From the IMG/VR virus record IMGVR_UViG_3300046820_001502, positions 1-56,790 of that record: a stretch of 56,790 bases of DNA; one strand, 5' to 3'. Shown here one piece after another: positions 28,246 through 53,536 of this stretch. The stretch comes from a virus (Duplodnaviria > Caudoviricetes). The notes below the pieces were generated by a model that was not told the DNA's origin, ran no database searches, and worked only from the letters and a program-made list of their open reading frames with translations. Numbering within the stretch: the stretch's first letter is position 1; each line of letters begins with the position of its first letter. Both the position numbers and the translations under genes were made by a program.

Positions 28246-30624
28246 TTAGAATTCTTTTCTTAAATTTCCTTCGTAGAACTCAAACCTATCATGTTCTGTT
28301 GGTGTCATCAAAAGAACTCCGGCATTAATTTTACCTTGTTTCATCTCTTTATAACAGTGAGACATTAAAGTTTGCTCGTAAGGATAAGTGAACTTAGTTT
28401 CGATATAACATTTGTAATTACCTTCTTGTGAAAGAATTATTGGCCAGTTAGACAAATAAACTTCACCTGTCGCATATGGAATACCGTCATAAATTTTTAT
28501 GTTTTTATATTCTAAATAAGGTGCGTTTGGATCTTGTCCGTTTACAGGTAATTTTGGATTGTCAGGCCAATGCTCATCTCTATATGCTTTGTCTACATTA
28601 TACCAAGCCCACTGTTTTTCATGACTACCATAAAACTCAGTAAAGTTGAACTTTAAAAAATCAAAGTTTTCTTTTCTTGTAATTTGTAAAACTTTTTCAT
28701 ATAAATTATTTGTTTTTCTTAAAAACCCATTTCTACAAGATGTTTCAGCTCCACCGTAGAAAAACATATCATCCTCAAAGAAAATATAATAATCCATGTC
28801 AGATTCATTAAAATGTTCGGCAACAAACACTCTACCACCTGTAATACCTATGTTATCTTTTTTAATGTGCTCAAATCCGTATTGTTCACAAAGTTCTAAG
28901 TATCGTGGTGTGGTTGATAGATCTGTTGAGTTATTTAGTAAAAACTTTTTAGTTCTTGTAAGAAAATCATTATCATATAACTCCATAGATCGTATTAGAG
29001 TTTCAAATTGTTTAGGACTATTAAATGTGATTACGTATAAACCAACATCTCCATTCTTTTTGATTTTAATCGGATCTTCTTTTCTAAAACTTTTAATAAC
29101 TACTGAATCATTTTTTACGTCCTCAAAAAACTTATAAAGTAATCCATTTGATTCGATTTCTACATAATCAATATTTTTTGGACTCGTATAAGTCATGATT
29201 GAAAATAAACTTTCTTCAGTACCCATCAAACCTCTGTTAAGTGTTGATTTCATTAGATCATAATACAAAGTATTCATTTCTCTAATCAAAGGTTTTGGTC
29301 CACCAAAAAATCCACCCCTACAAACTTTATTAACTCGTTGACCAACAAGTTCAGTCATAGAATTAATTTCAAAACCGTGGATCTCGTTGTCGGCTTCATA
29401 TGGGAATGCAACAAATGTAAAATTATCAAATAAGTTGTCTATTTTTGGTAATACATTATCGTGAGTAAAGTAACCTATATTAACTGTGTTGGCAATACCG
29501 GCATCTAACCAATATAATTTTTGGGAATTGAATTTGTCTAAAATAACCGCATCGTGCAGTAAAAACATTTTTGACATTACAAGAGGGTTATACATTTCTA
29601 ATTTGGCCTGTGTCGAATCTTTTAACCAACCCGCCAAATTATACCAATCAGGATTTGTTCTAATTTCTTGTATTTTATCGTAAAACTCTCCTTTGAACCA
29701 AGATTGATCTCTTAAAATGAATTGAGTATTTTCATGACTTCTTTTTGTAAATACAAAACTTTCTAATTCTGCATCACCAAAAATTATCATATTACAAGGA
29801 ATGTCTAAGAACTGTAAAAACTTTTCTAAATAATGTTGATACGATCTTGCCCATCCTTCAGTTAACCCATCTCTTTTGATATCCCATAAACCTGTAACTA
29901 ATGTAAGTTTTGAGTCTATTTTTTTTACAACTTCTTTTGGTTCTAAAGTTGCCTTAATTTCATCGTGTACGTCTTTTCTAATCGCATCAATATCCATATT
30001 ACCCAATATCTCATAAAGATAACCAGCCTCTGTTAACTTGTTTGTGATGTTAGTTTTTTCTTCGTCAGTCATATTACACCACTCTAACCGAATTAAACTT
30101 GGTCTAAACTTTCCTAAATCAATTTGTTTAAAGATTGTATAATCGTGTCCTTCAGTATCAACAGATAAAACATCAAAATGATCTATTCCGTGTTTTTGTA
30201 CTAATGTGTCCCAAGTAATACAATTAACCTCAACGTCAACGGCATATTTTTCAACAACTTCTCTATCACCTTCACTACCCATACCATTTTTAGATGGATC
30301 AATTACACTCATACCATAAAAAGCAGGATGAACTAAACCTTCGTCAACAACTTCGATTGGGATTGTTTTCATAGTTATAGTTCCATTAAAATCACTTACC
30401 GCAGAGTTTTCAAATTTGTTGCCAGGGTTATTACTCTTATGATTAACTAATCTCTCAAAATGAGGTTTCATAGGCTCAACATATAAAACATCCGAATTAT
30501 AGATTTGGGCGTATCCACTCATACTATCAAACATAACACCATCCATTGCTCCGATGTTAATCATAAATAATTTTTGGCCCTTTCTACCGTAATAATGTAA
30601 TACCTTATCAAAAAAATCTTCCAT
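28246..30624 (-). CDS. Multidomain: FkbM-like methyltransferase + WlaTC/HtrL-like glycosyltransferase + GT-A-like domain
   Basis: NIGAMDG/VEP/SVDTEGHD; LVTGLWDI/YWLDAGI/RGGFFGG/GTEES; VITFNSP/IFFEDDM. Confidence 0.7.
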   Translation of the reverse strand: MEDFFDKVLHYYGRKGQKLFMINIGAMDGVMFDSMSGYAQIYNSDVLYVEPMKPHFERLVNHKSNNPGNKFENSAVSDFNGTITMKTIPIEVVDEGLVHPAFYGMSVIDPSKNGMGSEGDREVVEKYAVDVEVNCITWDTLVQKHGIDHFDVLSVDTEGHDYTIFKQIDLGKFRPSLIRLEWCNMTDEEKTNITNKLTEAGYLYEILGNMDIDAIRKDVHDEIKATLEPKEVVKKIDSKLTLVTGLWDIKRDGLTEGWARSYQHYLEKFLQFLDIPCNMIIFGDAELESFVFTKRSHENTQFILRDQSWFKGEFYDKIQEIRTNPDWYNLAGWLKDSTQAKLEMYNPLVMSKMFLLHDAVILDKFNSQKLYWLDAGIANTVNIGYFTHDNVLPKIDNLFDNFTFVAFPYEADNEIHGFEINSMTELVGQRVNKVCRGGFFGGPKPLIREMNTLYYDLMKSTLNRGLMGTEESLFSIMTYTSPKNIDYVEIESNGLLYKFFEDVKNDSVVIKSFRKEDPIKIKKNGDVGLYVITFNSPKQFETLIRSMELYDNDFLTRTKKFLLNNSTDLSTTPRYLELCEQYGFEHIKKDNIGITGGRVFVAEHFNESDMDYYIFFEDDMFFYGGAETSCRNGFLRKTNNLYEKVLQITRKENFDFLKFNFTEFYGSHEKQWAWYNVDKAYRDEHWPDNPKLPVNGQDPNAPYLEYKNIKIYDGIPYATGEVYLSNWPIILSQEGNYKCYIETKFTYPYEQTLMSHCYKEMKQGKINAGVLLMTPTEHDRFEFYEGNLRKEF

Positions 30625-30633
30625 ATCTAATTT

Positions 30634-31521
30634 TTAAATTCCTAATTCCGTCTCAAAAAAATGAACGAAGTGTGTTTTATTTTTAATTGATTCTCTATCG
30701 AAAACCGGAGTTGTGAGCCAAAAGTCTTCATGATACCAAGTATCAAAACTGAATGTTTTAAACATATCAGGATTTTCGAACTCTAAGTTTGTAATCATAC
30801 CTTCGTGATTTAATATATGATTTTCATTTAAACATAAATTACTTATTATATCAAATTCTTGTATGAACCATTTTATTTTTGAAATGTGTCCTCCCAAAAT
30901 ACCACCAACAGACATATGTTTATAATCATTATTATTTTTATAAACTTTTCTAATCTCATTTGGGTTATGTGAAAACATGGTATTTGCCAAGTTGATTAAT
31001 TTATCGCCAACCCAATTATTTATCTTTGGGAATAATTCAGGACAAAATATTTTTGTAAATGAATAGTTTTCCCAATCTCGAGATAAACCAGTAATCTTAT
31101 CGGAGTAAGGATTATATTTTAAGGTAAACAATCCTCTGTGAGATAAACCACAATCAATCCAATAAATGTAGTCATAGGATTCGTCGTATTCTTTTGAAAT
31201 AAGGTATATTTTATTCCAATCAACTTCATGGTAGAAATTAAATTGTTCGTTAGATTTTTTAATCTCTAACATTCTTTCCGTTTTTGGGTAGTCTTTAAGA
31301 TTTGAAATTTTAATCGTTACGTTATTTAAATTAAATTCCTCACAATATTTTTGTAACAAATCAAATTGAGTTTCATTACAATAACATATAATTTCATTAT
31401 TCATGTTATTTAATGTCCTTAAAGAATGTAAGTATCTTTCTTGTCTTGCAAATGACTCGTGACCAAAAAAAGGAAACCCAATAATATCGGTATAAAAGGC
31501 GGTTACTAGCTTTGTCTTCAT
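30634..31521 (-). CDS. WlaTC/HtrL-like glycosyltransferase
   Basis: KLVTAFY, YIYWIDCGL, VGGILGG; resembles the middle domain of the neighbouring gene. Confidence 0.6.
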   Translation of the reverse strand: MKTKLVTAFYTDIIGFPFFGHESFARQERYLHSLRTLNNMNNEIICYCNETQFDLLQKYCEEFNLNNVTIKISNLKDYPKTERMLEIKKSNEQFNFYHEVDWNKIYLISKEYDESYDYIYWIDCGLSHRGLFTLKYNPYSDKITGLSRDWENYSFTKIFCPELFPKINNWVGDKLINLANTMFSHNPNEIRKVYKNNNDYKHMSVGGILGGHISKIKWFIQEFDIISNLCLNENHILNHEGMITNLEFENPDMFKTFSFDTWYHEDFWLTTPVFDRESIKNKTHFVHFFETELGI

Positions 31522-33095
31522 ATTCTTTTTCTAAAATAGTAATCACCTAATAAAAGACAATCCATTTCTGTTTTATCGTAAACCGAAATCGCATCACTAT
31601 ATCGAGAAAGTATTGGTTTTCCATTAACGTTGAACGATGTATTTAATAATACCCCTATACCTGATTGTTTCTCAAACTCAGTTAATAAATTGTATAACCA
31701 AGGGTTTTGTTCTTCAGTTACGGTTTGTACTCTTGCTGTACCATCTACGTGTGTAATTGAAACTAATTTTTCTCTCCACTCTTCTTTTACAGTAGGACAA
31801 AATCCCATCCACTTACTTTCACCCTCAAAATTAAAATATTTAGATACGTCTTCTAATTTACATACAGGGGCAAAAGGTCTATACCACTCTCTGTTTTTTA
31901 CTTTAGCATTTAATATATCTTTCATGTTATCATAAGCAGGATTACAAATAATACTTCTATTCCCTAAAGCTCTCGGACCATGTTCTGCATTACCTCTGAC
32001 AACACCAACAATTCTTCCATCTACTAAATCCTTAACTAACATTTCTGTCTCTAAAGGTAAAGCGTGTCTTTCCTCAACATGAGACATTAATGTATGTTTA
32101 TCTAAAATTGGAATACCTGCGTATGTAATGTCGATAGCCTTTTCAGGTTTAATATGATTTAACATCATTCCTGTTGCAATTCCACAATCATTTGGATTGG
32201 GTGGTACAAAAACTGGTCTATCAAGTTCTTGGTGTAACTTTGTGTTTAACAATATGTTTAATGCACAACCACCAACAAGTATTAAAGGTATATTTGGGTA
32301 TTGATCTAAAAATGGTATAGTTAACTCCATAAACACATTCTCAAATGCAATCTGAGAAGTTTTAGCAACATCCCAACCTATTTGACCCGTTAATCTATTT
32401 TCAAAATCAAAAGAAAGACCTGTTTGTTCTGCCAACTCATTTAAATAACCTAAGTAATTATTTCCGTCAGGTTTTTTTCTATAGTATTCTTCGAAGTGTG
32501 GCAACCAATCTTCATTAACATTACCATAAGAACAAAGTCCCATAATTTTTCCTGAGTAAACTAAATTACCAATATTAAGTGCCGGTTCTTTTGTAATATC
32601 ACCCAAGTAATCACCAAATGACATATATGGAAACCCTAAATCAGTATTAAATTTTTCAATAAGGTTTATGTTATTTCTGTCTTCCGCATGATACACATTA
32701 AAGAATCCATCATTACCTCCTCCATCAAATGAAATAATTAAAGCTTCGTTATAATCTGTTTGGTATAAACCACAAGCAGCATGGCTTAAATGGTGTAGTG
32801 AATTAATATATTCTTTTGCCGGTATTAACTCTTGATAATGAACCTTTGTTGTGTGTTCGATTGTATCCGCATTTAAGTAATAACATTTATCATATTCTGA
32901 AATTCCATATTCATCTTTAATAAATTGTAAAATATGTTTTAACAAAAAGGGTCTTGAGTATGAAATTAAATATTGTGCGTAACCTGCGTTTTTTTGGGTA
33001 AGAAATCTTTCGACTTCTATTACCACAATAATTTTTCCTTGATCCTCAACAACAACCGCAGAATTGTGAGATCCGTAAAATGAAATGTTTGCCAT
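31518..33095 (-). CDS. Carbamoyltransferase (NodU/CmcH/TobZ family)
   Basis: HHLSHAA, DGGG, GGCALN, EHGPRALGNRSI, KNREWYRPFAP, HVDGTARVQTV, LNTSFN. Confidence 0.92.
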   Translation of the reverse strand: MANISFYGSHNSAVVVEDQGKIIVVIEVERFLTQKNAGYAQYLISYSRPFLLKHILQFIKDEYGISEYDKCYYLNADTIEHTTKVHYQELIPAKEYINSLHHLSHAACGLYQTDYNEALIISFDGGGNDGFFNVYHAEDRNNINLIEKFNTDLGFPYMSFGDYLGDITKEPALNIGNLVYSGKIMGLCSYGNVNEDWLPHFEEYYRKKPDGNNYLGYLNELAEQTGLSFDFENRLTGQIGWDVAKTSQIAFENVFMELTIPFLDQYPNIPLILVGGCALNILLNTKLHQELDRPVFVPPNPNDCGIATGMMLNHIKPEKAIDITYAGIPILDKHTLMSHVEERHALPLETEMLVKDLVDGRIVGVVRGNAEHGPRALGNRSIICNPAYDNMKDILNAKVKNREWYRPFAPVCKLEDVSKYFNFEGESKWMGFCPTVKEEWREKLVSITHVDGTARVQTVTEEQNPWLYNLLTEFEKQSGIGVLLNTSFNVNGKPILSRYSDAISVYDKTEMDCLLLGDYYFRKRI

Positions 33096-33105
33096 TATTA
33101 TATTT

Positions 33106-34350
33106 TTATAAATTTCCTGTTATTCTATCACACCAACCTTTAGATGTTGAGTAAGGCCAAACAACCCAATATTTAGGTTTTTTAGTTGTATTGAATTCTC
33201 TCCATACTTTACAGTATCCATCAGGATCTCTAAAGAAACCGTTTATTTCATTAATATCTGCATCTCTTCTATATAAAGTTTCATCATTTTCATCGTGAAA
33301 AGCAACTACCCAATATTCATAATCTTTTTCAGGAACACTCACATAATTTACGTCTATACAGTGTTTGAAGATTGTTGAAAATGATTTCTTCCATTCCTCT
33401 TCTGTCTCGAAGTTATAGGTGTTTGGTGGATATTTTTTGTCAATTGTCTCTTGTTGGATTCCTCTTGACTCAAACAAAACACCAGCATATTTTTCATAGT
33501 CACTTACGGTTCTTTCAGTTCCAAACCATAAAGAATAATCTCCATCAAATTTTTCACCGTCAACTCCTAAAAGTTGTCTGTTTTTAATATGACAAGCTGT
33601 GTTTCTTAAATGCCAATCTTTGTCATCGTCCCACTGTTTAGTTCTACCTTTTCTTGTGTATTCGTGCCAAATTAAAACTTTGTGTGGATGGAATAAATCA
33701 TAACCATATGTATAAGCTCTTACTGAAATTGAAATTTCTTCTCCGTGAAAATAAAATTCAGGATCATGTTGAACTTCAGTTGAAAATTCACCTAAAGTAA
33801 AACAATAATGTGCTGAGTAAAATCTTGCAGGAACAGGTTGTTTCATTTCTTGCCAACCTGGAATTGATTCAGGCAAGAAGAATACAACACCTTCAGGTGT
33901 AAATCTATCAAATGCCATTCTCCATGGTTCTCTAACACGACCTTCAGGATCATTATCAGGATCAAATGATGAAACATATCCTGTTAAAAGAGGTTTTTTA
34001 TGTCCTTTCTTTTGAAGTTGTTTAATCATTTTAATCATTTCATCATCCCAATTCTTTTCGAATCTCATGTGAGAATCGATTTGAAGAGTATACTCCTCAC
34101 CACCATACAGTTGTTGGACTTGATGTCTTGCCCAACAAACCCCTTTTGATTCTGTGTAAGGAATATTTAGGATTCTAAATCTTTTATCTTTTTCATACTT
34201 AGATAAATCATCAAAACCATCTTCAGGATGGAATTGTCTTGCAACACCAATAATTACATTTTTTGGTCTTTTTGCGTTTTCCAACATATTTTCTATTGTT
34301 GGTATTAGTTGAGGGTCGCGATACGCAGCGATTTGTACAAATATTTTCAT
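33106..34350 (-). CDS. GT60-like polypeptide N-acetylglucosaminyltransferase
   Basis: IFVQIAAYRDP, GVCWARH, LQIDSHMRF (DxH), FYFHGEEI motifs. Confidence 0.8.
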   Translation of the reverse strand: MKIFVQIAAYRDPQLIPTIENMLENAKRPKNVIIGVARQFHPEDGFDDLSKYEKDKRFRILNIPYTESKGVCWARHQVQQLYGGEEYTLQIDSHMRFEKNWDDEMIKMIKQLQKKGHKKPLLTGYVSSFDPDNDPEGRVREPWRMAFDRFTPEGVVFFLPESIPGWQEMKQPVPARFYSAHYCFTLGEFSTEVQHDPEFYFHGEEISISVRAYTYGYDLFHPHKVLIWHEYTRKGRTKQWDDDKDWHLRNTACHIKNRQLLGVDGEKFDGDYSLWFGTERTVSDYEKYAGVLFESRGIQQETIDKKYPPNTYNFETEEEWKKSFSTIFKHCIDVNYVSVPEKDYEYWVVAFHDENDETLYRRDADINEINGFFRDPDGYCKVWREFNTTKKPKYWVVWPYSTSKGWCDRITGNL

Positions 34351-34387: not shown

Positions 34388-34690
34388 TTAGGGACCTTCG
34401 AATAAATAAATCACATCATCTTGGAACATGAAGACCTCAAAGTCCTCAAATTGTTTACCATAAAGTATTCCACAACTTAGTAATACAAATTTTTCACAAC
34501 CTAAAGAATCAACAATTTTTAAAAGTAAAGATACAACATTATCAAGTGGTGGCGGAACAACAAATTGGTATGGAGTTACAATTGTTGTTGCACTTGAAAC
34601 TAAAAAACAATAAGTCAAAGTAACATCACAAACATAAATGTCATATGGTGAATTACCTGATATAGAATTTATTTGGATTATGTTTGCCAT
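34388..34690 (-). CDS. Small putative virion protein
   Basis: 100 aa, Cys-containing; TATTTAT upstream. Confidence 0.55.
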   Translation of the reverse strand: MANIIQINSISGNSPYDIYVCDVTLTYCFLVSSATTIVTPYQFVVPPPLDNVVSLLLKIVDSLGCEKFVLLSCGILYGKQFEDFEVFMFQDDVIYLFEGP

Positions 34691-34736: not shown

Positions 34737-35720
34737 TTAAATGTATCTTGTATACGTATTGTTGTAATATTGTACGATATCAGAATTTGATAATGCAATA
34801 TCGTATATTAATACTTCACCAACATTACCTTGCAAATATTCATTACTTACTGTTTTTGCGATTTGTATCGCACTTGTTGTGACATTATGTCCTGAAGGTG
34901 TATCTGAACCAACTAAAACACCGTTAACCAATATACTTCTTGTTGTACCATCATATTTTACAACAGCATTAAACCACCCATTTGTTGGTGACACGGAACT
35001 TGTCACAACTAAATCATTACCCCACCAATAATTTATTACTTGATTAGTTCCTCCGGCTCTAAATGCATTTGATTGGTTACCAGTTCCAAATGAACCAACA
35101 CTCATAAATCCATTACCACCCCAATTAGTACCAAGTTGTACCCATATTATAAAAGTATAATCTGAGTTTCCTGTCGGTAAGTTAGTTCCTGATGGATTAC
35201 TAAACCATCCATTAGACCCTGTTGAGAAATAAACCGCTCCTGTATTATTCCAAGTTATACTACCTGAGTTTACCATGGTAACATCATTTCCATTACCACT
35301 TAAATCATACCAAGTAGTACCCGCACCTGAGTAACTATTAGGGTCGGCAGCATCTAAATGCAAACTTAAATTAGAAACGTATGAGGTCCAGTATCCTTGA
35401 TTGTTTAAATAAGTTTTACATTGACTTCCCGTTGTAAATGTTTGATTAAAAACTCCATTTACTAAGTTAACAAAAGATTGTTCTGTTTTAACTTTTGATC
35501 TCAAAAATCTAATATATGCCGGTACATTATCAGGATTAGGTTGATTACCAAAAAAGTTAGGTCTACATATAACATAACCCAAATCTTCATCAGGACCATT
35601 CCACCATCTTGGTAAACCTGTAAATCCTGTGGTTGGGAAACCTACCGCCAAGTCTCCAATCTGTAATGTTCCTGAAATTGTTGATCCTGTGTTAAAAGCA
35701 AAAGGTCTTGTTGTTGACAT
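34737..35720 (-). CDS. LamG / concanavalin-A-like lectin-fold virion protein
   Basis: LHLDAADPNSYSGAGTTWYDLSGNGN, YDGTTRSILVNG, GNVGEVLIYDIALS. Confidence 0.8.
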   Translation of the reverse strand: MSTTRPFAFNTGSTISGTLQIGDLAVGFPTTGFTGLPRWWNGPDEDLGYVICRPNFFGNQPNPDNVPAYIRFLRSKVKTEQSFVNLVNGVFNQTFTTGSQCKTYLNNQGYWTSYVSNLSLHLDAADPNSYSGAGTTWYDLSGNGNDVTMVNSGSITWNNTGAVYFSTGSNGWFSNPSGTNLPTGNSDYTFIIWVQLGTNWGGNGFMSVGSFGTGNQSNAFRAGGTNQVINYWWGNDLVVTSSVSPTNGWFNAVVKYDGTTRSILVNGVLVGSDTPSGHNVTTSAIQIAKTVSNEYLQGNVGEVLIYDIALSNSDIVQYYNNTYTRYI

Positions 35721-39691: not shown

Positions 39692-39725
39692 AAAAACCCC
39701 CATCTTTTCAGGTAGGGGTTTTTTT
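39692..39725. terminator. Probable bidirectional terminator between convergent genes
   Basis: AAAAACCCC...GGGGTTTTT inverted repeat with A/T tails on both sides. Confidence 0.65.
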
Positions 39726-45700: not shown

Positions 45701-48700
45701 CCATTAGTTCCGTTCGTTCCATTCGTTCCGTTGGTTCCCGAAGTTCCATTGGTTCCATTTGTACCACTTGTACCGTTAGTACCATTAGTTCCGTTTGTTC
45801 CATTTGTACCACTTGTACCGTTAGTACCATTAGTTCCTGATGTTCCGTTAGTCCCATTAGTACCCGATGTACCATTTGTTCCGCTAGTTCCGTTGGTTCC
45901 ATTAGTACCATTCGTACCATTAGTTCCGCTAGTACCATTTGTACCGTTAGTTCCTGATGTTCCGTTTGTCCCTGAAGTACCGTTAGTACCGTTGGTTCCC
46001 GAAGTTCCATTCGTTCCGTTTGTACCTGAAGTTCCATTTGTACCATTTGTCCCCGATGTACCATTAGTACCTGAAGATCCGTTCGTACCATTCGTTCCGC
46101 TAGTTCCATTAGTACCATTCGTTCCACTAGTACCATTTGTTCCAGACGTACCATTTGTTCCATTAGTACCGCTAGTTCCGTTCGTACCATTTGTTCCATT
46201 AGTACCGTTAGTACCTGATGTTCCGTTTGTTCCATTCGTACCTGATGTTCCATTGGTTCCATTTGTTCCTGACGTACCGTTCGTACCGCTAGTACCGTTT
46301 GTTCCATTTGTTCCTGACGTTCCATTAGTTCCATTAGTTCCGTTAGTACCGTTTGTTCCCGATGTCCCATTCGTACCGCTAGTACCATTAGTTCCGTTAG
46401 TACCGTTTGTACCTGAGGTTCCGTTGGTTCCATTAGTTCCGTTGGTACCATTTGTTCCGCTAGTTCCATTCGTTCCTGACGTACCGTTTGTTCCTGATGT
46501 GCCGTTAGTTCCGTTAGTTCCGTTAGTACCGTTTGTTCCCGATGTTCCGTTAGTACCGTTTGTTCCCGATGTTCCGTTCGTTCCTGAAGTTCCATTTGTA
46601 CCGTTGGTACCGTTAGTTCCGCTTGAACCATTTGTTCCATTTGTTCCTGACGTACCGTTTGTTCCATTAGTACCGCTAGTACCATTTGTTCCCGATGTTC
46701 CATTAGTACCGTTGGTTCCTGATGATCCGTTTGTACCATTTGTCCCACTAGTGCCATTTGTGCCTGAAGTTCCATTCGTTCCATTGGTACCGTTAGTTCC
46801 TGATGTTCCGTTTGTTCCATTCGTACCTGAGGTTCCGTTGGTACCATTTGTTCCGTTTGTACCATTTGTACCCGATGTCCCATTGGTTCCGTTCGTTCCG
46901 CTAGTTCCATTGGTTCCGTTTGTTCCCGATGTTCCGTTGGTACCATTTGTTCCATTAGTTCCGTTCGTACCGCTAGTTCCGTTGGTACCATTTGTTCCAT
47001 TAGTACCATTTGTACCTGATGTACCATTCGTTCCACTAGTTCCATTCGTTCCGTTTGTACCATTCGTTCCATTTGTCCCGCTAGTTCCATTAGTACCTGA
47101 TGTTCCGTTTGTTCCATTAGTACCCGACGTCCCGTTTGTTCCAGAAGTACCATTAGTACCGTTGGTACCGCTTGAACCATTTGTTCCATTCGTTCCCGAA
47201 GTTCCATTAGTACCTGATGTACCATTGGTTCCATTAGTACCTGAAGTTCCGTTTGTCCCATTCGTACCTGATGTACCATTTGTTCCCGAAGTTCCATTCG
47301 TACCATTCGTACCTGAAGTTCCATTTGTACCTGAGGTTCCGTTTGTTCCGTTTGTGCCCGATGACCCATTAGTTCCATTCGTACCGTTGGTACCATTTGT
47401 ACCTGAAGTCCCATTAGTTCCTGACGATCCATTTGTCCCATTAGTACCCGATGTCCCATTAGTACCCGATGTTCCGTTAGTACCGTTGGTTCCATTTGTT
47501 CCGTTAGTTCCATTTGTTCCGCTAGTACCGTTGGTTCCGTTTGTTCCATTCGTTCCGCTAGTTCCATTTGTACCTGAGGTTCCATTCGTTCCGTTTGTTC
47601 CTGATGTTCCATTAGTACCGTTTGTTCCTGAAGTTCCATTGGTACCACTTGAACCATTTGTTCCATTAGTACCGTTAGTTCCATTCGTACCTGATGTTCC
47701 GTTAGTCCCTGATGTACCATTTGTTCCATTTGTCCCTGAAGTACCATTAGTCCCGTTTGTTCCATTTGTACCTGAGGTACCATCAGCCCCACTTGTTCTA
47801 TAATATGTATTTCCGCTTGTATCAACAACAACAAATCTTGTTGCTCCTGAATTAATTGTAATGCCTGTAATACTTAACGCATCCGTAGTTGTTCTACCCG
47901 AACCATCAAAAGATATCTTATGAACTCCCGCACCATTTTTAATTTCTAACACCGGATCAGCATCAGACGCACTACCTCTTTGTATTGTAACCGCACCTAA
48001 TGTTGAATTAGTTATAATCTCAGGTTCAGATGAGTTATTATATGCTTGTTGTAAATTTGTTGTTGGACTACCTCCCGCAGCACCTACCACATCACCAAAT
48101 TTTGATACATTAAAGAATAACGCTTTTGCAGTATCTGTTAAGACAGTTGTGTCTTTTCTAAGAGAAAGTATTCCTATTAAAATGGCATCATTATTGAAAT
48201 TAGAAAATTCAACAAATTGTTCAGTTTGGATTCCAGCAACCGCCGCAGCCAAACTTGAATATGTTTGTTGTCCATATTGAACTCTAAACACACCATTTTG
48301 AACCAAATAAATTCTTTGGTTAGTTGAAGTTCCCCCTCCACCAGGTATAGTGGTGATAACACCATTCAAATCGTATTTTGTTGGATCAATAAATGTAGTG
48401 TTTGATGCCGTACCCCCTGTTTGTGTTCTATATTGAAATGTACATGGAGAGGTACCTGAAACGTATATTGTATCAGGTTGTAAAGGATTAGCAGCAAAGT
48501 TAATACCCAAACCATACAAATATTGTGCACTTGTGTTAAACCTTAAATTCGCACCATTTGCTGATGGATAGATACCCCCATTTATTAAGTTAATAGGAGT
48601 GAACATGTCACGAAGTTGTGACAATGGTGATTGGATAAAGTCAGGTTGACTAAACGCATTTATAATAGTTGTTTTGTCAGCATGTCCTAATTTACCTAAG

Positions 48701-49302
48701 AATATATTTTGTCTTCTTTGTGTCTCAGTTAAAGGAAGATTTGATTGTGAAAGTGTACCACCACTTGTTAAATAAATCCAACTTTCTGTATCAGTTGTTC
48801 TATATGTAGCACTATAAGTACCACCACTGTATGCGACATAATAAAGTTGCGGAAATAAAGGATTTGTAAAATCATCTACAACCCAACCTTTTACAGGTGC
48901 TACAGTAAATGTGGTTGGGGATGCAATACTTAAACCAGAAAATGAAAATACCCCTGTTGAGGAGTTAACACTTGAAATATTATATGCAATGGCAACCCAG
49001 TTTGAACCGTTACTTGCAAGTTGTAATGAATTTGTTTCCCCTAATACAACAAATGACTTATCATCAATATTCTGACCAGAATATGGTAATACAGTAACCG
49101 CACCACCACCATTATTTTTAATTACAATTAATCTACCCTGTTTTCCAACAGCTGTCTGTAGTTGAACGTTAAAGGTACCACCTGTAACGTCAATCATGTA
49201 ATCACTATCAGTAACAGTATAAGTACTGTTAATTGTAAGTTGGGGGAATGTTATACCACTAAGAGATTTAAGCCCATTACGGGCAACGAATTCATTTGCC
49301 AT
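39724..49302 (-). CDS. Giant collagen-like fibre protein (3192 aa): N-terminal globular region, 675 Gly-X-Y triplets, C-terminal domain with six Cys-rich repeats
   Basis: Non-repetitive N and C termini in frame with the GTN/GTS repeat; TATTTAT upstream, terminator downstream. Confidence 0.88.
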   Translation of the reverse strand: MANEFVARNGLKSLSGITFPQLTINSTYTVTDSDYMIDVTGGTFNVQLQTAVGKQGRLIVIKNNGGGAVTVLPYSGQNIDDKSFVVLGETNSLQLASNGSNWVAIAYNISSVNSSTGVFSFSGLSIASPTTFTVAPVKGWVVDDFTNPLFPQLYYVAYSGGTYSATYRTTDTESWIYLTSGGTLSQSNLPLTETQRRQNIFLGKLGHADKTTIINAFSQPDFIQSPLSQLRDMFTPINLINGGIYPSANGANLRFNTSAQYLYGLGINFAANPLQPDTIYVSGTSPCTFQYRTQTGGTASNTTFIDPTKYDLNGVITTIPGGGGTSTNQRIYLVQNGVFRVQYGQQTYSSLAAAVAGIQTEQFVEFSNFNNDAILIGILSLRKDTTVLTDTAKALFFNVSKFGDVVGAAGGSPTTNLQQAYNNSSEPEIITNSTLGAVTIQRGSASDADPVLEIKNGAGVHKISFDGSGRTTTDALSITGITINSGATRFVVVDTSGNTYYRTSGADGTSGTNGTNGTNGTSGTNGTNGTSGTNGTSGTNGTNGTNGTNGSSGTNGTSGTNGTNGTSGTNGTNGTSGTNGTSGTNGTNGTNGTSGTNGTNGTNGTNGTNGTSGTNGTSGTNGTNGSSGTNGTSGTNGTNGTNGTNGSSGTNGTNGTSGTNGTSGTNGTNGTSGTNGTSGTNGTNGTSGTNGTNGTSGTNGTSGTNGTNGSSGTNGTNGTSGTNGTSGTNGTNGTSGTNGTSGTNGTNGTNGTNGTSGTNGTSGTNGTNGTNGTNGTSGTNGTNGTNGTNGTSGTNGTNGTSGTNGTNGTSGTNGTNGTNGTNGTSGTNGTNGTSGTNGTNGTNGTSGTNGTSGTNGTNGSSGTNGTNGTSGTNGTSGTNGTNGTSGTNGTNGSSGTNGTNGTNGTSGTNGTSGTNGTNGTSGTNGTNGTNGTNGTSGTNGTSGTNGTSGTNGTNGTNGTNGTSGTNGTNGTNGTSGTNGTSGTNGTNGTNGTNGTSGTNGTNGTSGTNGTSGTNGTNGTSGTNGTNGTSGTNGTNGTNGTNGTSGTNGTNGTSGTNGTSGTNGTNGTSGTNGTNGSSGTNGTSGTNGTNGTSGTNGTNGTSGTNGTNGTSGTNGTSGTNGTNGTSGTNGTNGTNGTNGTSGTNGTSGTNGTNGTSGTNGTNGTSGTNGTNGTNGTNGTSGTNGTNGTSGTNGTNGTNGTNGTSGTNGTNGTSGTNGTSGTNGTNGTSGTNGTNGTSGTNGTSGTNGTSGTNGTNGTNGTNGTNGTSGTNGTNGTSGTNGTSGTNGTNGTSGTNGTNGTSGTNGTSGTNGTNGTSGTNGTNGTSGTNGTSGTNGTNGTSGTNGTNGTSGTNGTSGTNGTNGTSGTNGTNGTSGTNGTSGTNGTNGTSGTNGTNGSSGTNGTNGTSGTNGTSGTNGTNGTNGTNGTSGTNGTNGTSGTNGTNGTNGTSGTNGTSGTNGTNGTSGTNGTNGTSGTNGTNGTSGTNGTSGTNGTNGTSGTNGTSGTNGTNGTSGTNGTNGTNGTSGTNGTSGTNGTNGTSGTNGTNGTNGTNGTSGTNGTNGTSGTNGTSGTNGTNGTSGTNGTSGTNGTNGTSGTNGTNGTSGTNGTSGTNGTNGTSGTNGTSGTNGTNGSSGTNGTNGTSGTNGTSGTNGTSGTNGTNGTSGTNGTNGTSGTNGTSGTNGTNGTSGTNGTNGTSGTNGTNGTSGTNGTNGTSGTNGTSGTNGTNGTSGTNGTSGTNGTNGTSGTNGTNGTSGTNGTNGTNGTSGTNGTNGTSGTNGTSGTNGTNGTSGTNGTSGTNGTNGTNGTNGTSGTNGTSGTNGTSGTNGTSGTNGTSGTNGTNGTNGTNGTSGTNGTSGTNGTNGTNGTSGTNGTNGTSGTNGTSGTNGTNGTNGTNGTSGTNGTSGTNGTNGSSGTNGTNGTSGTNGTSGTNGTNGSSGTNGTSGTNGTNGTNGTSGTNGTNGSSGTNGTNGTNGTSGTNGTNGSSGTNGTSGTNGTNGTSGTNGTNGTSGTNGTSGTNGTNGTSGTNGTNGTSGTNGTNGTSGTNGTSGTNGTNGSSGTNGTNGTSGTNGTNGTNGTSGTNGTNGTSGTNGTSGTNGTNGTSGTNGTNGTSGTNGTSGTNGTNGSSGTNGTNGTSGTNGTSGTNGTSGTNGTNGTNGTNGTSGTNGTNGTSGTNGTNGTSGTNGTSGTNGTNGTSGTNGTSGTNGTNGTSGTNGTNGSSGTNGTSGTNGTNGTSGTNGTSGTNGTNGTNGTSGTNGTNGTSGTNGTSGTNGTNGTNGTSGTNGTNGTSGTNGTNGTNGTSGTNGTSGTNGTNGTSGTNGTSGTRGTSGTNGTNGTNGTSGTNGTNGTSGTNGTNGTNGTNGTSGTNGTNGATGSPGTSGTNGTNGTSGTNGTNGATGSPGTSGTNGTNGTSGTNGTNGATGSPGTSGTNGTNGTSGTNGTNGATGSPGTSGTNGTNGTSGTNGTNGATGSPGTSGTNGTNGTSGTNGTNGATGSPGTSGTNGTNGTSGTNGTNGATGSPGTSGTNGTNGSSGTSGGGGGAISIFDEGNLVQSSATSINFIGTCITATSGTSGSVNVTLTCTGGGGSCNIDNTLIASNSGKFKLTPQPDTNTNFLWMGSSECGWNGCPWDIGVPIRFSANPLRGDTAFLGVPSPVNVRAGDSIRLCGNVWWKINLSSYQPSFVVALYLYQCNDLGDLIPLTTVISPAYFNMTSNYLCFDVSHTFTQYYNACDIFYVVGFNIVQDADTPTQEPRFTYTLNYEKDCTIPDGEFYVLRNCCEPTVTEIIVGSSLTIGTFWSDAQDNCWEIESTTLAAPNSIRTLVTNYASCSSCISSNPCPDNAVIDSCCVTGLEYVTGSLDLVVGDTFVDDNGLCWNVTSGTGAPVTAPTITIGTTGYTNCDDCITTNECPEFWFINSCCKVLPQEIISIPAGTVSIGEIWIDTNGFCWVINTQVNQLPTNYSISLASQYFGGCEACKTANPCPEVVYVTIRNCCNPLQVEVYATQAFVPQTGTIFTDTNGVCWEVTSWDLTGTVSWPVPIYNSKQFDDCTQCRLDVGGCPDYYLFSACCETGVTQVAYGVFTIGLSYLEVISDNCYVCVSITTDTPTSNFYTDTPYDTCEKCLESNPCNYYEVYNCCLNTNQVVLAQGGMGFSGFYDPLTGVCFDFVSSSTGPATVSVGTITAQYSDCTTCIAAHACPA
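39727..41010 (-). repeat. Six ~70-aa Cys-rich protein repeats (CC...C[W/Y/F]...CxxC...C)
   Basis: Read from the translation, e.g. NCCEP..DNCWEI..CSSCISSNPCP and SCCVT..GLCWNV..CDDCITTNECP. Confidence 0.85.
41716..47790 (-). repeat. 9-nt-period coding repeat (Gly-Thr-Asn / Gly-Thr-Ser), 6075 nt = 675 triplets
   Basis: Gly at every third residue; length exactly divisible by 9. Confidence 0.95.
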
Positions 49303-49420
49303 CTATATTATTTCTTTTTTCCCTATCCAAAAGAAAATCCTTTGATTTATTTGTTATTCAATAAATATTTGTTAAGTAACGATTATTACCTAAAAAGAAA
49401 AATTAAATAAAAGATTGATT

Positions 49421-52400
49421 TTAGAATACAATTCTTGTAGCGACTAAGATGTCCCAAGTACCTCCAGTAATTGTTGCAATTAAATCAACAATACCTGCGG
49501 TTACTTGGACATTCCATTTAAGATTCGCGGTAGAACCATTCAAATCAGGTGATGACACATCAGTAAATGCGGCCCCCGCATTATCCCAAGTTGCATATAC
49601 TTGACCAACTCTTTTTTGACCTGCATTTCCTGTAATACAATATTCGAAGAACGCAGCACATCCAAAATCAGATCTAAATCTATCGATAGTGGTTGTTGTA
49701 GTTATACCTGTTGCGGTTTTAGTATTAACTTTATCGTAACTTCTATTTAGAGTTAATATACCGTCAGTTCCATTATATGTGAAATTAGTTTCTGCAACTA
49801 TTCCTCCCGAGCCGTCAGATGTTAGTATTTCATTATCCGAACCTGGTACTACAGGTGATGATCCGCTTGTACCATCAGTACCTGAAGTTCCATTTGTCCC
49901 TGACGTTCCATTAGTTCCGCTAGTACCATTTGTTCCTGACGTTCCGTTTGTTCCTGAAGTCCCATCTGTTCCATTAGTTCCTGAAGTCCCATCTGTTCCA
50001 TTAGTTCCTGAAGTACCGTTTGTTCCGTTAGTACCCGATGTCCCATCAGTACCTGAAGTTCCGTTAGTTCCATTTGTTCCCGAAGTCCCGTTAGTACCAT
50101 TCGTACCATTCGTACCATTCGTACCACTAGTACCATTAGTTCCGCTAGTACCATCAGTTCCATTAGTTCCTGATGTACCATTCGTACCATTAGTTCCATT
50201 TGTTCCTGAAGTACCGTTGGTTCCATTTGTTCCTGATGTACCATTAGTACCATTTGTTCCTGAAGTCCCATTAGTACCATCCGTACCATTCGTACCATTA
50301 GTTCCGCTTGTTCCGTTAGTTCCGTTAGTCCCATTTGTCCCCGAAGTACCATCAGTCCCGTTAGTACCTGATGTTCCGTTTGTACCATTTGTGCCTGAAG
50401 TTCCGTTGGTTCCATTAGTACCTGATGTTCCATCTGTTCCGTTAGTTCCATTAGTCCCCGAAGTTCCATCTGTTCCGTTAGTACCTGAAGTACCGTTGGT
50501 TCCGTTAGTACCTGAAGTACCATCTGTCCCATTAGTTCCGTTAGTCCCATTTGTACCAGAAGTCCCATCTGTTCCTGATGTTCCGTTAGTTCCATTTGTA
50601 CCGCTAGATCCATCTGTTCCGTTGGTTCCACTTGTACCATTAGTACCTGAAGTACCATTTACACCTGATATCCCACTAGTACCATCTGTCCCTGAAGTGC
50701 CGTTAGTTCCGCTAGTTCCATCTGTACCATTTGTACCATCGGTTCCTGAAGAGCCATTTGTCCCATCGGTTCCTGAAGAGCCATTTGTCCCATCGGTTCC
50801 TGAAGTTCCATTTGTCCCATCGGTTCCTGAAGTCCCATCTGTTCCGTCAACACCTGAAATACCACTTGTCCCATCTGTACCTGAAGTACCGTCTGTTCCA
50901 TTAGTCCCATCTGTTCCGCTTGAACCATTTGTTCCGTCAGTTCCACTTGTTCCATCTGTTCCATTTGTTCCTGAAGTCCCATCTGTTCCGTTTGTACCTG
51001 AGGTTCCATCTGTTCCATTTGTTCCTGAAGTCCCATCTGTTCCGTTTGTCCCCGAAGTACCATCTGTTCCGCTAGTACCATCAGTTCCATTCGTACCATT
51101 TGTTCCGCTAGTACCATCAGTTCCTGAACTTCCATCCGTACCATTTGTTCCGCTAGTACCATCAGTTCCATTCGTACCATTAGTTCCACTTGTTCCATTC
51201 GTACCACTTGATCCGTCTGTTCCATTAGTTCCCGAAGTTCCATCTGTTCCATTAGTTCCCGAAGTTCCGTCCGTTCCGTTTGTACCGCTTGAACCGTTTG
51301 TACCGCTTGAACCATTTGTTCCTGAAGTCCCATCTGTTCCATTTGTACCTGAAGTTCCATCCGTACCACTTGATCCATTTGTACCATCAGTTCCATCAGT
51401 CCCATTAGTACCTGAAGTTCCATCAGTCCCGTTTGTTCCACTAGTACCATCAGTACCCGAAGTACCATTTGTTCCGTCCGTACCGCTAGTACCATCAGTT
51501 CCATTTGTTCCACTAGTACCGTCTGTTCCATTTGTCCCTGAAGATCCATTTGTCCCATCTGTACCGCTAGTTCCATTTGTCCCATCTGTACCGCTAGTTC
51601 CGTCAGTACCATTAGTACCTGAAGTTCCATCTGTACCATCAGTTCCATTTGTACCACTAGTACCACTAGTACCATCTGTTCCATTTGTACCTGAAGTACC
51701 ATCTGTTCCATTTGTACCTGAAGTTCCATCTGTTCCACTTGAACCATCTGTACCATTCGTCCCACTAGTCCCATCAGTCCCTGAAGTCCCATCTGTCCCG
51801 TTAGTTCCGCTTGAACCATCTGTTCCGTCTGTCCCATTTGTACCCGAAGTACCATCTGTTCCGCTAGTTCCATCTGTACCATTAGTTCCGTCTGTACCTG
51901 AAGTACCATCTGTTCCATTTGTACCGTCAGTACCTGAGGTTCCATCTGTACCATTAGTTCCTGATGTACCATTAGTTCCTGATGTTCCGTTAGTACCATC
52001 TGTACCTGAAGTCCCATCTGTTCCATTTGTTCCGCTAGTCCCATCTGTTCCATTTGTTCCGCTAGTCCCATCTGTTCCATTTGTTCCGCTAGTTCCATCT
52101 GTACCATTTGTTCCGCTAGTTCCATCTGTACCATTTGTACCGTCAGTACCATTTGTTCCTGAAGTTCCGTCTGTTCCATCTGTTCCTGAAGTTCCATCTG
52201 TTCCATCTGTTCCTGAAGTTCCGTCTGTACCATTTGTACCCGAAGTCCCATCAGTACCATTTGTTCCATTTGTTCCATCTGTACCATTAGTTCCTGAAGT
52301 TCCGTCCGTACCACTAGTACCATCAGATCCATCTGTTCCGTTTGTACCACTTGAACCGTCAGTTCCATTAGTTCCCGACGTACCATTTGTTCCGTTAGTT

Positions 52401-53536
52401 CCTGATGTACCGTTGGTACCATTTGTTCCTGAAGTTCCGTTTACTCCAGATATACCACTTGTCCCATCAGTCCCTGAAGTTCCGTCTGTTCCGCTAGTCC
52501 CATCAGTTCCGTTTGTGCCTGATGATCCGTCTGTTCCGTTTGTGCCACTACTACCTGAAGTACCGTCTGTTCCGCTAGTTCCGTCTGTTCCGTTAGTTCC
52601 CGACGAACCGTCTGTTCCGTTAGTTCCCGACGAACCATCTGTACCATTTGTTCCGCTAGTTCCGTCTGTACCACTAGTCCCATCGGTTCCTGAAGTTCCA
52701 TCAGTCCCATTTGTACCCGAAGATCCATCAGTACCATTAGTTCCACTACTTCCATCAGTACCATTTGTACCTGACGTTCCATTTACACCTGATAATCCGC
52801 TTGTTCCATCTGTTCCGCTTGTTCCATCTGTTCCACTTGTTCCATCTGTTCCACTTGTTCCATCTGTTCCACTTGTTCCATCAGTTCCTGAAGTTCCGTC
52901 TGTTCCACTACTTCCGTCCGTACCATTTGTACCTGAAGACCCATCTGTCCCGTTAGTACCACTTGATCCATCAGTACCATTTGTTCCGCTAGTTCCATCT
53001 GACCCACTAGTTCCATCAGTTCCTGAAGTTCCATCTGTTCCTGAAGTTCCATCTGTTCCACTTGAACCTGAAGACCCACTTGAACCTGAAGACCCACTTG
53101 AACCTGAAGACCCACTCGATCCTGAAGATCCATTAGTTCCGTCTGTTCCACTTGATCCTGAAGATCCGCTTGAACCTGAAGACCCACTCGATCCTGAAGA
53201 TCCACTCGATCCTGATGAACCTGAACTACCTGATGAACCTGAACTACCTGATGAACCGCTTGATCCTGAACTACCTGATGAACCTGAACTACCTGCAGTT
53301 CCTGATCCACCACTTGTACCACTTGAACCATCTGTTCCTGAAGTACCGTCTGTACCTGAACTACCACTACTTCCTGTGGCACCACTTAAAATTGCCTGTA
53401 AATCACTTAAAGGAGCATAATAAGAAGAACCTTGTGGGCTCTGAGAAGTGTCTCCCGTAACAACTACGTGAAAAATATCGTTTAAGGTTACAGCTGAAAC
53501 CCTACTCCTGTCCGTTAATCTACTATATACTGGCAT
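49421..53536 (-). CDS. Second collagen-like fibre protein (1371 aa; 392 Gly-X-Y triplets of GSS/GTD/GTS/GTN)
   Basis: Short unique N-terminus and ~145-aa beta-rich C-terminal domain flank the repeat; TATTTAT upstream. Confidence 0.88.
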   Translation of the reverse strand: MPVYSRLTDRSRVSAVTLNDIFHVVVTGDTSQSPQGSSYYAPLSDLQAILSGATGSSGSSGTDGTSGTDGSSGTSGGSGTAGSSGSSGSSGSSGSSGSSGSSGSSGSSGSSGSSGSSGSSGSSGSSGSSGTDGTNGSSGSSGSSGSSGSSGSSGSSGSSGTDGTSGTDGTSGTDGTSGSDGTSGTNGTDGSSGTNGTDGSSGTNGTDGSSGTDGTSGTDGTSGTDGTSGTDGTSGTDGTSGTDGTSGLSGVNGTSGTNGTDGSSGTNGTDGSSGTNGTDGTSGTDGTSGTDGTSGTNGTDGSSGTNGTDGSSGTNGTDGTSGTDGTSGSSGTNGTDGSSGTNGTDGTSGTDGTSGTDGTSGISGVNGTSGTNGTNGTSGTNGTNGTSGTNGTDGSSGTNGTDGSDGTSGTDGTSGTNGTDGTNGTNGTDGTSGTNGTDGTSGTDGTDGTSGTDGTDGTSGTNGTDGTNGTDGTSGTNGTDGTSGTNGTDGTSGTNGTDGTSGTNGTDGTSGTDGTNGTSGTNGTSGTNGTDGTSGTDGTNGTDGTSGTDGTNGTDGTSGTDGTSGTNGTDGTDGSSGTNGTDGTSGTDGTSGTNGTDGSSGTDGTSGTNGTDGTSGTNGTDGTSGTSGTNGTDGTDGTSGTNGTDGTSGTDGTNGTSGTDGTNGSSGTNGTDGTSGTNGTDGTSGTDGTNGTSGTDGTSGTNGTDGTSGTNGTDGTDGTNGSSGTDGTSGTNGTDGTSGTNGSSGTNGSSGTNGTDGTSGTNGTDGTSGTNGTDGSSGTNGTSGTNGTNGTDGTSGTNGTDGSSGTDGTSGTNGTNGTDGTSGTDGTSGTNGTDGTSGTNGTDGTSGTNGTDGTSGTNGTDGTSGTDGTNGSSGTDGTNGTDGTSGTDGTSGISGVDGTDGTSGTDGTNGTSGTDGTNGSSGTDGTNGSSGTDGTNGTDGTSGTNGTSGTDGTSGISGVNGTSGTNGTSGTNGTDGSSGTNGTNGTSGTDGTSGTNGTNGTNGTDGTSGTNGTNGTSGTNGTDGTSGTNGTNGTDGTSGTNGTNGTSGTNGTNGTSGTNGTDGTSGTNGTNGTNGTSGTNGTNGTDGTNGTSGTNGTNGTSGTNGTNGTSGTNGTNGTNGTSGTNGTDGTSGTNGTSGTNGTNGTNGTNGTSGTNGTNGTSGTDGTSGTNGTNGTSGTNGTDGTSGTNGTDGTSGTNGTSGTNGTSGTNGTSGTNGTSGTDGTSGSSPVVPGSDNEILTSDGSGGIVAETNFTYNGTDGILTLNRSYDKVNTKTATGITTTTTIDRFRSDFGCAAFFEYCITGNAGQKRVGQVYATWDNAGAAFTDVSSPDLNGSTANLKWNVQVTAGIVDLIATITGGTWDILVATRIVF
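49856..53383 (-). repeat. 9-nt-period coding repeat, 3528 nt = 392 Gly-X-Y triplets
   Basis: Gly at every third residue; length exactly divisible by 9. Confidence 0.95.

Follow-up and report, generated by a model that had tools for sequence, protein, structure and literature searches.

In Escherichia coli, the autotransporter heptosyltransferases TibC and Aah, of a family marked by ring-shaped dodecamers, hyperglycosylate an adhesin encoded beside them (TibC with TibA, Aah with AIDA-I; PDB 4RAP/4RB4; PMC4358343), and in Clostridioides difficile the enzyme SgtA, encoded just upstream of bclA3, adds N-acetylglucosamine (GlcNAc) to the O-glycosylated threonines of the BclA3 collagen repeats, with a glycan that masks the peptide surface (PMC7157674). 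The characterised members of the GT60 family, enzymes of Dictyostelium, Trypanosoma cruzi and Toxoplasma, also act on polypeptides, where they start mucin-type glycans on Ser/Thr domains or modify a hydroxyproline of Skp1 (PMC8724618, PMC6939170). We analysed IMG/VR virus record IMGVR_UViG_3300046820_001502, from an uncultured myovirus, and refer to this complete record of 56,790 bases as the window. It contains a TibC/Aah-like and a GT60-like glycosyltransferase (GT), each set among other sugar-modifying enzymes, next to two giant collagen-like fibre genes. We lean towards the view that this is where a large freshwater myovirus keeps its variable host-recognition functions, and that two glycosylation modules in this region, A (with GT60) and B (with the TibC-like enzyme), act on the phage's own virion proteins.

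Both fibres (Table 1) are collagen-like in that glycine occupies every third residue without interruption, over 677 consecutive triplets in the large protein and 392 in the small one. The large array is composed mainly of GTN (435), GTS (207) and GSS (17) triplets and the small array of GTN (117), GTD (108), GTS (104) and GSS (50), so that Thr fills the X position in 643/677 and 330/392 triplets, respectively, and Asn, Ser or Asp the Y position. A sequence-only reading of this DNA had described two fibre genes whose 1067 triplets nearly all carry Thr or Ser; apart from our slightly higher count of 1069, we arrive at the same description. The 2031 residues of the large array include 650 Thr, 248 Ser and 435 Asn, with only 7 Pro and 2 charged residues; the small array has no Pro at all and 111 Asp. 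Stabilising prolines or charged pairs at X and Y were found in neither array. If the arrays are helical, the textbook collagen rise of 0.286 nm per residue gives lengths of about 581 nm (large) and 336 nm (small). Like BclA3 and BclA of Bacillus anthracis, the phage proteins are collagen-like fibres with Thr in nearly every triplet and a putative dedicated transferase encoded alongside. They differ in that the spore proteins have Gly-Pro-Thr repeats, with Pro present and Thr at Y, whereas the phage repeats are Gly-Thr-Asn/Ser/Asp, with Thr at X and practically no Pro; the enzyme belongs to another family, the location is a virion rather than a spore surface, and the spore arrays are far shorter than 392 or 677 triplets.

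Codons are mixed across the repeats, with four Gly and four Thr codons in use and no 27-mer occurring more than 4 times, and this scrambling of synonymous codons indicates that the repeat is kept at the protein level. Long open reading frames (ORFs) in the other frames are shadows of the repeats, across which G+C stands at 0.44-0.46 against a background of 0.30-0.35. The longest exact internal repeat of the large array is 174 nucleotides (nt). The neighbouring gene for a 974-amino-acid (974-aa) protein and the C-terminal part of the large fibre are spanned, at about 96-97% identity, by 2-3 kb contigs from three other freshwater DNA runs, all of which break off where the repeat begins, at 41782; inside the array, contigs of other runs give only short pieces and many apparent joints. 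Because none of these contigs bridges the repeat, the exact count of 677 rests on one assembly, but what kind of array it is stands firm. Other contigs carry arrays of 566, 695, 833 and 861 triplets, some of them in more than one record, and near-identical DNA occurs in freshwater metagenomes of several studies. Freshwater metatranscriptome contigs match the 974-aa gene, the fibre C-terminal part and two places inside the repeat with zero differences (36743-53536); we do not count these matches as expression because DNA carry-over is possible.

The ends of the two proteins point to phage tails. In the large fibre, the 504-aa N-terminal domain that precedes the array matches two PHROG tail-fibre families (phrog_16641, 'tail fiber protein', E 8.6e-22; the second, E 3.1e-13). 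For the small fibre, the C-terminal domain was modelled on a six-sequence alignment with a predicted local distance difference test score (pLDDT) of 79. The best matches of this model are a baseplate protein of a Klebsiella phage (Z 11.1), the C-terminal domains of two phage tailspikes (Z 9.8 and 8.0) and of a phage tail fibre (Z 9.4), and T4 gp9 (Foldseek E 6.6e-4), the next-best matches having Z of 6.5 or less. Because of these matches at the N-terminus of one protein and the C-terminus of the other, both look like tail-associated fibres. A C-terminal C1q/TNF-like trimerising domain is a feature of BclA-type glycosylated collagen-like proteins, and we considered a BclA-like C1q domain for the small fibre; its model matched the phage tailspike and baseplate domains instead, with no C1q-type chain among the matches listed. 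The 657-aa C-terminal region of the large fibre holds 47 Cys, with six repeats of about 70 aa that have six Cys each (CC...C...CxxC...C), and gave no match in a family search. Matches to the 51-aa N-terminus of the small fibre are present in 29 further loci, with identities of 84-90% in 20 loci and of 49-61% in the others. From locus to locus the repeat differs freely in length, and so do the C-terminal domains in kind, a pattern which suggests that this N-terminus is a fixed virion anchor with exchangeable distal parts.

The 974-aa gene of module B is convergent with the large fibre gene across a 56-nt gap and divergent from a gene for a GT9-like protein. Its middle domain scores 297.3 bits against the curated NCBIfam equivalog TIGR04414 (cut-off 200; residues 408-745) and aligns with PDB 4RAP at E 3.5e-72 over TibC residues 40-389. 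Judged by these scores, it is a genuine member of the TibC/Aah family and the strongest identification in the cluster. The resemblance to TibC and Aah extends to the setting, as the enzyme gene adjoins that of a long, repetitive, Ser/Thr-rich surface protein, and the multi-site modification would likewise be cytoplasmic. The differences are that the neighbour of the phage gene is a collagen-like Gly-X-Y fibre and not a beta-helical autotransporter, none of which was found by family searches among the window proteins, and that in the phage fusion protein a GT4-type domain precedes the TibC-like domain and an FkbM methyltransferase follows it. The GT4-type domain is weak here (28.6 bits against a cut-off of 27) but stronger in homologues, among which the TibC-like domain occurs alone or as GT4-TibC, GT4-TibC-FkbM and GT8-GT25-GT4-TibC-FkbM.

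We mapped the functional residues of TibC onto 54 distinct phage domains, using a HMMER alignment and nine short motifs of the window protein. The catalytic base Asp-110 (Asp475 in the window), Thr-226 and Lys-230, which bind the beta-phosphate (Thr590 and Lys594), Trp-305, which contacts the heptose O4 (Trp665), and the four cysteines 339, 342, 358 and 370 that form the iron finger (Cys700, 703, 717 and 729; roles from PMC4358343) are invariant in 54/54. Two residues that contact the donor are replaced. Arg-286, which contacts adenine N1 and so confers specificity for ADP-sugars, corresponds to Val646 in the window and to Val (47), Leu (5) or Ile (2) across the 54 domains, while Pro-300 (Ser in Aah), which contacts heptose O4/O6, corresponds to Gly660 and, across the same domains, to Gly (49), Ser (4) or Ala (1) (residue roles from PMC4358343). 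From this alignment, the domain is best described as a family member with a systematically altered donor pocket, whose donor may differ from that of TibC and Aah. We also looked for heptose-nucleotide genes in near-complete relatives: GmhA and RfaE domain II had no match in three near-complete records of this phage group, and matches were below threshold in two of another group. The latter (G019 and G033, behind loci L291 and L292) are two complete genomes of 344-373 kb that have a TibC-like gene and a GTN repeat without GT60. They carry a GmhA-like match of 188 bits (cut-off 209) and an RfaE-domain-II-like match of 107 bits (cut-off 181), at about 118.8-119.8 kb and 317.3-318.2 kb, and it is possible that they encode a partial heptose-nucleotide pathway.

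The GT9-like protein, which lies outside the TibC family, accompanies the TibC-like gene in other records. In 11 records, weak second TIGR04414 matches fall in open frames of about 310-324 aa, 2-5 kb away from the TibC-like gene, and we presume these frames to be counterparts of the GT9-like gene.

We compared the surroundings of the enzymes across viral contigs, taking the best 80 of 286 TibC-like contigs and the best 80 of the 221 that encode a GT60 relative, with 10-kb flanks, and scoring a collagen-like run as at least 15 triplets within 10 kb. Such a run is present in 52/80 TibC-like loci. Many of the loci are near-duplicates; when their TibC-like domains are clustered at 85% identity, 24/32 clusters are positive and 5 are negative on short contigs; at 70% identity, 10/14 are positive. 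With the same method and flank, runs were found in 0/80 tail-sheath loci (1039 kb) and in 1/9 carbamoyltransferase loci, this one being already among the GT60 loci. Thr or Ser is present in 16669/17641 of the triplets near TibC-like genes, and several TibC-like contigs end only a few kb away from the gene, a pattern to be expected from assemblies that break in repeats. The relative orientation depends on lineage, being convergent in the closer lineages, whereas in those at 50-54% identity the TibC-like gene is followed immediately by the repeat gene in tandem. The four end domains of the window fibres are all missing from 32 of the 52 positive loci, which leaves the repeat as the common factor.

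Relatives of the TibC-like domain are also encoded by six contigs filed as bacterial metagenome-assembled genomes, which may carry bacterial genes or be binned phage DNA (L413-L418; 42-54% identity), five of them with Gly-Thr/Ser runs of at least 10 triplets nearby. The cultured cyanophage Microcystis phage Mel-JY01 encodes a 1226-aa protein annotated as an FkbM methyltransferase (L243, 4750-8430), whose C-terminus is 52% identical to the TibC-like domain.

The distribution of module A is different. Only 9/80 GT60 loci have a collagen-like run (10/80 with runs of at least 8 triplets, one of them a trivial Gly-rich run), which leaves 71/80 without one within 10 kb. We also searched in the opposite direction, starting from at least 148 stretches in viral contigs that match a degenerate DNA pattern for GTN-GT[S]-GTN-GT and examining 49 loci from distinct records. 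TIGR04414 is matched above its cut-off in 25/49 of these repeat-bearing records, including 6/7 that are at least 90% complete, and GT60 is present in 9/49, including 2/7, so that 40/49 lack it, 5/7 of the more complete ones among them. A 98%-complete relative has the repeat at one contig end and the TibC-like gene about 10 kb from the other end. Conversely, the GT60 core is present in a 100%-complete relative as well as in the jumbo phages XacN1 and Xoo-sp13, and none of the three gave a TIGR04414 match or a collagen-like pattern (for Xoo-sp13, the pattern was sought in the 41-kb GT60 locus). Across the 82 loci formed by the 80 GT60 loci, XacN1 and Xoo-sp13, relatives of GT60 are present in 82, of the HtrL/GT-A part of the 792-aa fusion (residues 236-791) in 75, XacN1 and Xoo-sp13 included, of the 295-aa HtrL-like protein in 39, of the carbamoyltransferase and of the 974-aa protein in 11 each, and of the GT9-like protein in 5. 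Within the 80 GT60 loci, 5 have both a run and module B, 4 a run only, 7 module B only and 64 neither. The DNA from the GT9-like gene through the small fibre behaves as an insert between GT60 and the gene for a conserved 729-aa protein, which lie a few kb apart in many relatives. We read the cluster, from this comparison of gene content, as an old core (module A) joined by a mobile fibre cassette (module B with the fibres).

These distributions bear directly on the sequence-only reading, which had proposed a single prime-extend-cap pathway on the fibres and had suggested looking for co-occurrence of its GT set with GT[N/S/D] repeats. Co-occurrence holds for the TibC-like enzyme and fails for the GT60/HtrL/GT-A core, and because the two modules differ in this way the single pathway finds no support in the form proposed, and a pair of modules, each with partners of its own, is the better fit. 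A version in which the six enzyme genes build one methylated and carbamoylated glycan on both fibres could point to the contiguity of all the enzyme genes with the fibres, and to the distance of 0.5 to about 10 kb between GT60 and the GTN repeat in 9/9 records that hold both. It is nonetheless unlikely given the many repeat-free GT60 loci and GT60-free repeats, the presence of the core in the run-free complete genome, XacN1 and Xoo-sp13, and the variable carbamoyltransferase, which most GT60 loci lack.

The GT-A domain of module A might have tied that module to collagen. It forms the C-terminal 292 aa of the 792-aa protein, and its model (pLDDT 85, with an invariant Glu-Asp-Asp) has Z of 13-15.6 to many GT-A enzymes. 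At the head of the Foldseek ranking stand LH3, COLGALT1 and Mimivirus R699, all of them GT-A enzymes that act on a collagen-type helix and thus a further argument for one integrated pathway, and we considered a collagen-specific enzyme on this ground. Since a second aligner gives unrelated GT-A enzymes equal or higher Z, the ranking is unspecific and we claim only the GT-A fold, a likeness that is generic to these enzymes. LH3, COLGALT1 and R699 act on hydroxylysine, whereas the window repeats contain no Lys.

In the window, the genes run leftward from 36676 on the minus strand in the order GT9-like, Laminin_G_3, 100-aa protein, GT60, carbamoyltransferase, 295-aa protein and 792-aa fusion. The inventory of the sequence-only reading, with about seven GT-like domains (GT60, TibC/Aah, GT9, GT4, two HtrL-like and one GT-A), two FkbM domains and one carbamoyltransferase, was recovered in full, and so was its observation that the enzyme genes are interleaved with virion genes, as tail sheath, tail tube and baseplate hub genes are found in the same window. 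The closest cultured relatives, by the GT60 gene at 42-46% identity, are XacN1 and Xoo-sp13 of Xanthomonas and two Stenotrophomonas phages; a sequence search with the GT60 protein, which is 46% identical to XacN1 ORF334, found no relative of solved structure. The carbamoyltransferase falls below the NodU equivalog cut-off and is a member of the family rather than NodU itself. The HtrL-like domain of the 792-aa protein passes the Pfam cut-off (PF09612, 40.3 bits against 24.1) and scores 55.9 bits against TIGR02192, below the equivalog cut-off of 264.9.

What module A might modify is suggested by its neighbours, four of which carry Pro/Thr-rich stretches of 20-60 residues. Pro/Thr-rich ORFs occur in 74/80 GT60 loci (164 ORFs, 11.9 per 100 kb), compared with 9/80 sheath loci of the same phage group (0.87 per 100 kb), and in 41/80 TibC loci. 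In XacN1 and Xoo-sp13, the genes for GT60, carbamoyltransferase, HtrL-like and HtrL/GT-A proteins form a core that is syntenic with that of the window (40-47% identity), and in both the core lies beside a giant virion-region gene that also bears Pro/Thr-rich linkers; unlike the window, they have no collagen-like repeat (in the 41-kb locus of Xoo-sp13) and no TibC-like gene. In XacN1, at least two virion glycoproteins were detected, the authors propose its own glycosyltransferases ORF328 and ORF334 as their makers, and electron microscopy showed no tail fibres (PMC5852040). Taken together, these observations fit a core that glycosylates non-fibre virion proteins.

We suggest the following scheme. 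In module B, the TibC-like domain would add the first sugar to Thr/Ser of the fibres in the cytoplasm of the infected cell, elongation of the glycan would fall to the fused GT4 domain and its methylation to the FkbM domain, with the 974-aa fusion probably working together with the small GT9-like protein. Module A, with GT60, two HtrL-like domains, GT-A, FkbM and, here, the carbamoyltransferase, would be the older core of the phage group and would glycosylate other virion proteins, most likely the Pro/Thr-rich, mucin-like linkers of its neighbours; it may or may not act on the fibres as well. On this basis the phage probably glycosylates its fibres. The arrays also contain 428 (large) and 120 (small) Asn-Gly-Thr/Ser sequons; N-glycosylation of these remains a side thought, as no recognised N-glycosyltransferase family was among the Pfam matches of the window.

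A more specific proposal can be made, which we regard as tentative and rather doubtful as a whole: that the TibC/Aah relatives of phages form a branch of their own whose substrate changed from beta-helical adhesins to collagen-like triple helices free of proline and nearly free of charge, that this branch, having lost the adenine-contacting arginine, uses a donor other than ADP-heptose, and that the dense sugar coat lets fibres of about 0.3 and 0.6 micrometres fold and stay stable. The collagen of hydrothermal vent worms, in which glycosylated Thr occupies the Y position, had been invoked in the sequence-only reading as a precedent. The analogy is loose, as Thr is at X here.

Several observations weigh against the view that both modules modify the phage's own virion proteins. 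The replacement of Arg-286 and Pro-300 means that the sugar is not assumed to be heptose, and the chemistry may differ from heptosylation. Three of the 32 TibC-like clusters are negative although both flanks extend at least 9 kb, and 22/49 repeat-bearing records, mostly fragments, have no TIGR04414 match. Many loci are related by descent, and the co-occurrence could partly reflect a shared hypervariable fibre region. The link between GT60 and Pro/Thr-rich linkers is a correlation inside one syntenic region, and the known substrates of the TibC family are beta-helical autotransporters rather than triple helices (PMC4358343). One could therefore suppose that the TibC-like enzyme modifies another virion protein or a non-collagen part of the fibre, for which the 504-aa N-terminal domain and the Cys-rich C-terminal repeats of the large fibre are possible acceptors, and that its nearness to the arrays comes from a fast-shuffling region that both inhabit. 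We consider this very unlikely, as most positive loci have only the repeat, and no end domain, in common with the window fibres, and location alone does not give 52/80 when GT60, in the same region, gives 9/80.

A second group of objections concerns the host surface. The HtrL/YibB, GT9 and GT4 families are typical of lipopolysaccharide synthesis and occur in lipopolysaccharide clusters, and lipopolysaccharide heptosyltransferase II (PDB 1PSW, E 5e-5) is the nearest match to the 308-aa GT9-like protein. In XacN1, the GT9 gene is the only ORF with its best match in Xanthomonas (PMC5852040). The pelagimyophages and cyanomyophages, which are T4-like aquatic myoviruses like that of the window in having glycosyltransferase and tail-fibre genes in one variable region, carry mainly GT8 enzymes mixed with fibre genes, and these have been interpreted as altering the O-chain of the host; the text consulted mentions neither collagen-like repeats nor enzymes of the TibC type as their partners (PMC7029224). 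The enzymes of the window might then remodel lipopolysaccharide, capsule or other host glycans, for example against superinfection, and the fibres would be bare. We think this improbable. The two clearest identities, TibC/Aah and GT60, are known to act only on polypeptides, remodelling of the host gives no reason for the pairing of TibC-like genes with Thr/Ser repeats across lineages and orientations, and the glycoproteins reported from XacN1 are on the virion (PMC5852040).

Glycosylation of a virion by the phage's own enzymes has a further parallel in mycobacteriophages, siphoviruses of Gram-positive-type hosts, whose glycosyltransferases reportedly modify their own structural proteins, namely capsid and tail-tube subunits. 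That system reportedly involves other enzyme families and no collagen-like fibres. The new element here would be that phages use a protein-glycosylating family already known on a substrate class new to it, in a new fusion context and with a changed donor pocket. Our literature search, with most subscription journals outside its reach, found no paper describing a TibC-like/collagen-like pairing in phages.

Further features of the window are given in Table 1. CheckV puts the record at about 19% complete, which at 56,790 bases implies a genome near 300 kb, and its genes include, besides those named above, an SNF2 helicase, a family-B DNA polymerase and a superoxide dismutase fusion. The 327-aa Laminin_G_3 protein is, from its family matches, probably a virion protein. 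The 100-aa protein lies directly upstream of collagen-like genes with the conserved 51-aa N-terminus in four other loci (L019, 683-976; L016; L249, 6446-6742; L262, 16763-17056), a position in which it could possibly serve as a fibre adaptor or chaperone.

Table 1. Coordinates and properties of the fibre, enzyme and neighbouring genes in the window.
Feature	Coordinates	Strand	Description
Large collagen-like fibre	39724..49302	-	3192 aa; tail-fibre-type N-terminal domain 47791-49302; 677 Gly-X-Y triplets 41698-47790; C-terminal Cys-rich region 39727-41697
Small collagen-like fibre	49421..53536	-	1371 aa; conserved 51-aa N-terminus 53384-53536; 392 triplets 49856-53383; 144-aa C-terminal beta-sandwich 49424-49855
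Module B fusion enzyme	36743..39667	+	974 aa; GT4-type about residues 200-347; TibC/Aah-like 407-748; FkbM methyltransferase about 795-919
GT9-like protein	35750..36676	-	308 aa; generic heptosyltransferase-type fold; PF01075 E 5e-14
Laminin_G_3 (concanavalin-like) protein	34737..35720	-	327 aa; Pfam E 7.5e-14; phrog_8510 'virion structural protein' E 4.6e-11
100-aa protein	34388..34690	-	Relatives in 70 loci
GT60-family glycosyltransferase	33106..34350	-	414 aa; PF11397 E 8.4e-69, 233.1 bits against cut-off 21; phrog_24687 E 6e-166
NodU/CmcH-type carbamoyltransferase	31518..33095	-	525 aa; Carbam_trans_N 69.3 bits and Carbam_trans_C 212.3 bits; phrog_1601 E 3e-118
HtrL/YibB-like protein	30634..31521	-	295 aa; no Pfam match; hhalign 98.6%, E 8.6e-16, 226 columns against the HtrL-like domain family of the 792-aa protein
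792-aa fusion	28246..30624	-	FkbM residues 24-204; HtrL/YibB-like 236-490; GT-A with Glu-Asp-Asp 501-792
525-aa protein	26656..28233	-	Two long Pro/Thr-rich linkers; relatives in 65/82 loci
280-aa protein	22807..23649	-	Pro/Thr-rich linker; N-terminal domain paralogous to that of 26656-28233, 46% identity over 137 aa
Small protein with Pro/Thr-rich tail	53615..54085	-	Tail of about 60 aa; true start probably ATG at 54043; candidate mucin-like acceptor
729-aa protein	54046..56235	-	Pro/Thr linker; conserved flank of variable fibre region
Tail sheath protein	9259..12594	-	1111 aa; sheath domains confined to the last ~290 residues
Superoxide dismutase fusion	16274..18412	+	712 aa; Fe/Mn superoxide dismutase at residues ~165-353; flanks without family match

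The tail sheath protein has a long N-terminal part with a Thr-rich stretch at residues 294-317. The motif [AGT]TATTTAT[AT] occurs 24 times in the window, for example at 12636, 53552, 49368, 35743 and 34409 on the minus strand, and 15 of the 24 occurrences lie in the sense orientation at most 75 nt upstream of a start codon, where 0.48 are expected. It stands before the genes for the sheath, both fibres, the Laminin_G protein, the Pro/Thr-linker proteins, GT60 (59 nt upstream) and the DNA polymerase, and is likely, from its placement, to be a promoter element of this phage group. T4-type late promoters (TATAAATA) are not enriched, with 12 matches against 9.2 expected.

If the fibres are glycosylated, the modification of virions by a phage's own enzymes would extend beyond the few known cases to a widespread group of large freshwater phages, and the TibC family would gain a second, very different substrate class. 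The arrays would offer a test case for the stability of a collagen-type helix with almost no Pro or charge, and the enzyme-plus-repeat pair could be used for glycosylated collagen-like materials. Should the sugar coat prove to stabilise the fibres, the glycan would be a structural requirement of the fibre and not a decoration. The division into two modules is in itself a concrete reason to take a second look at those glycosyltransferases of aquatic myovirus fibre regions that are routinely annotated as modifiers of the host surface.

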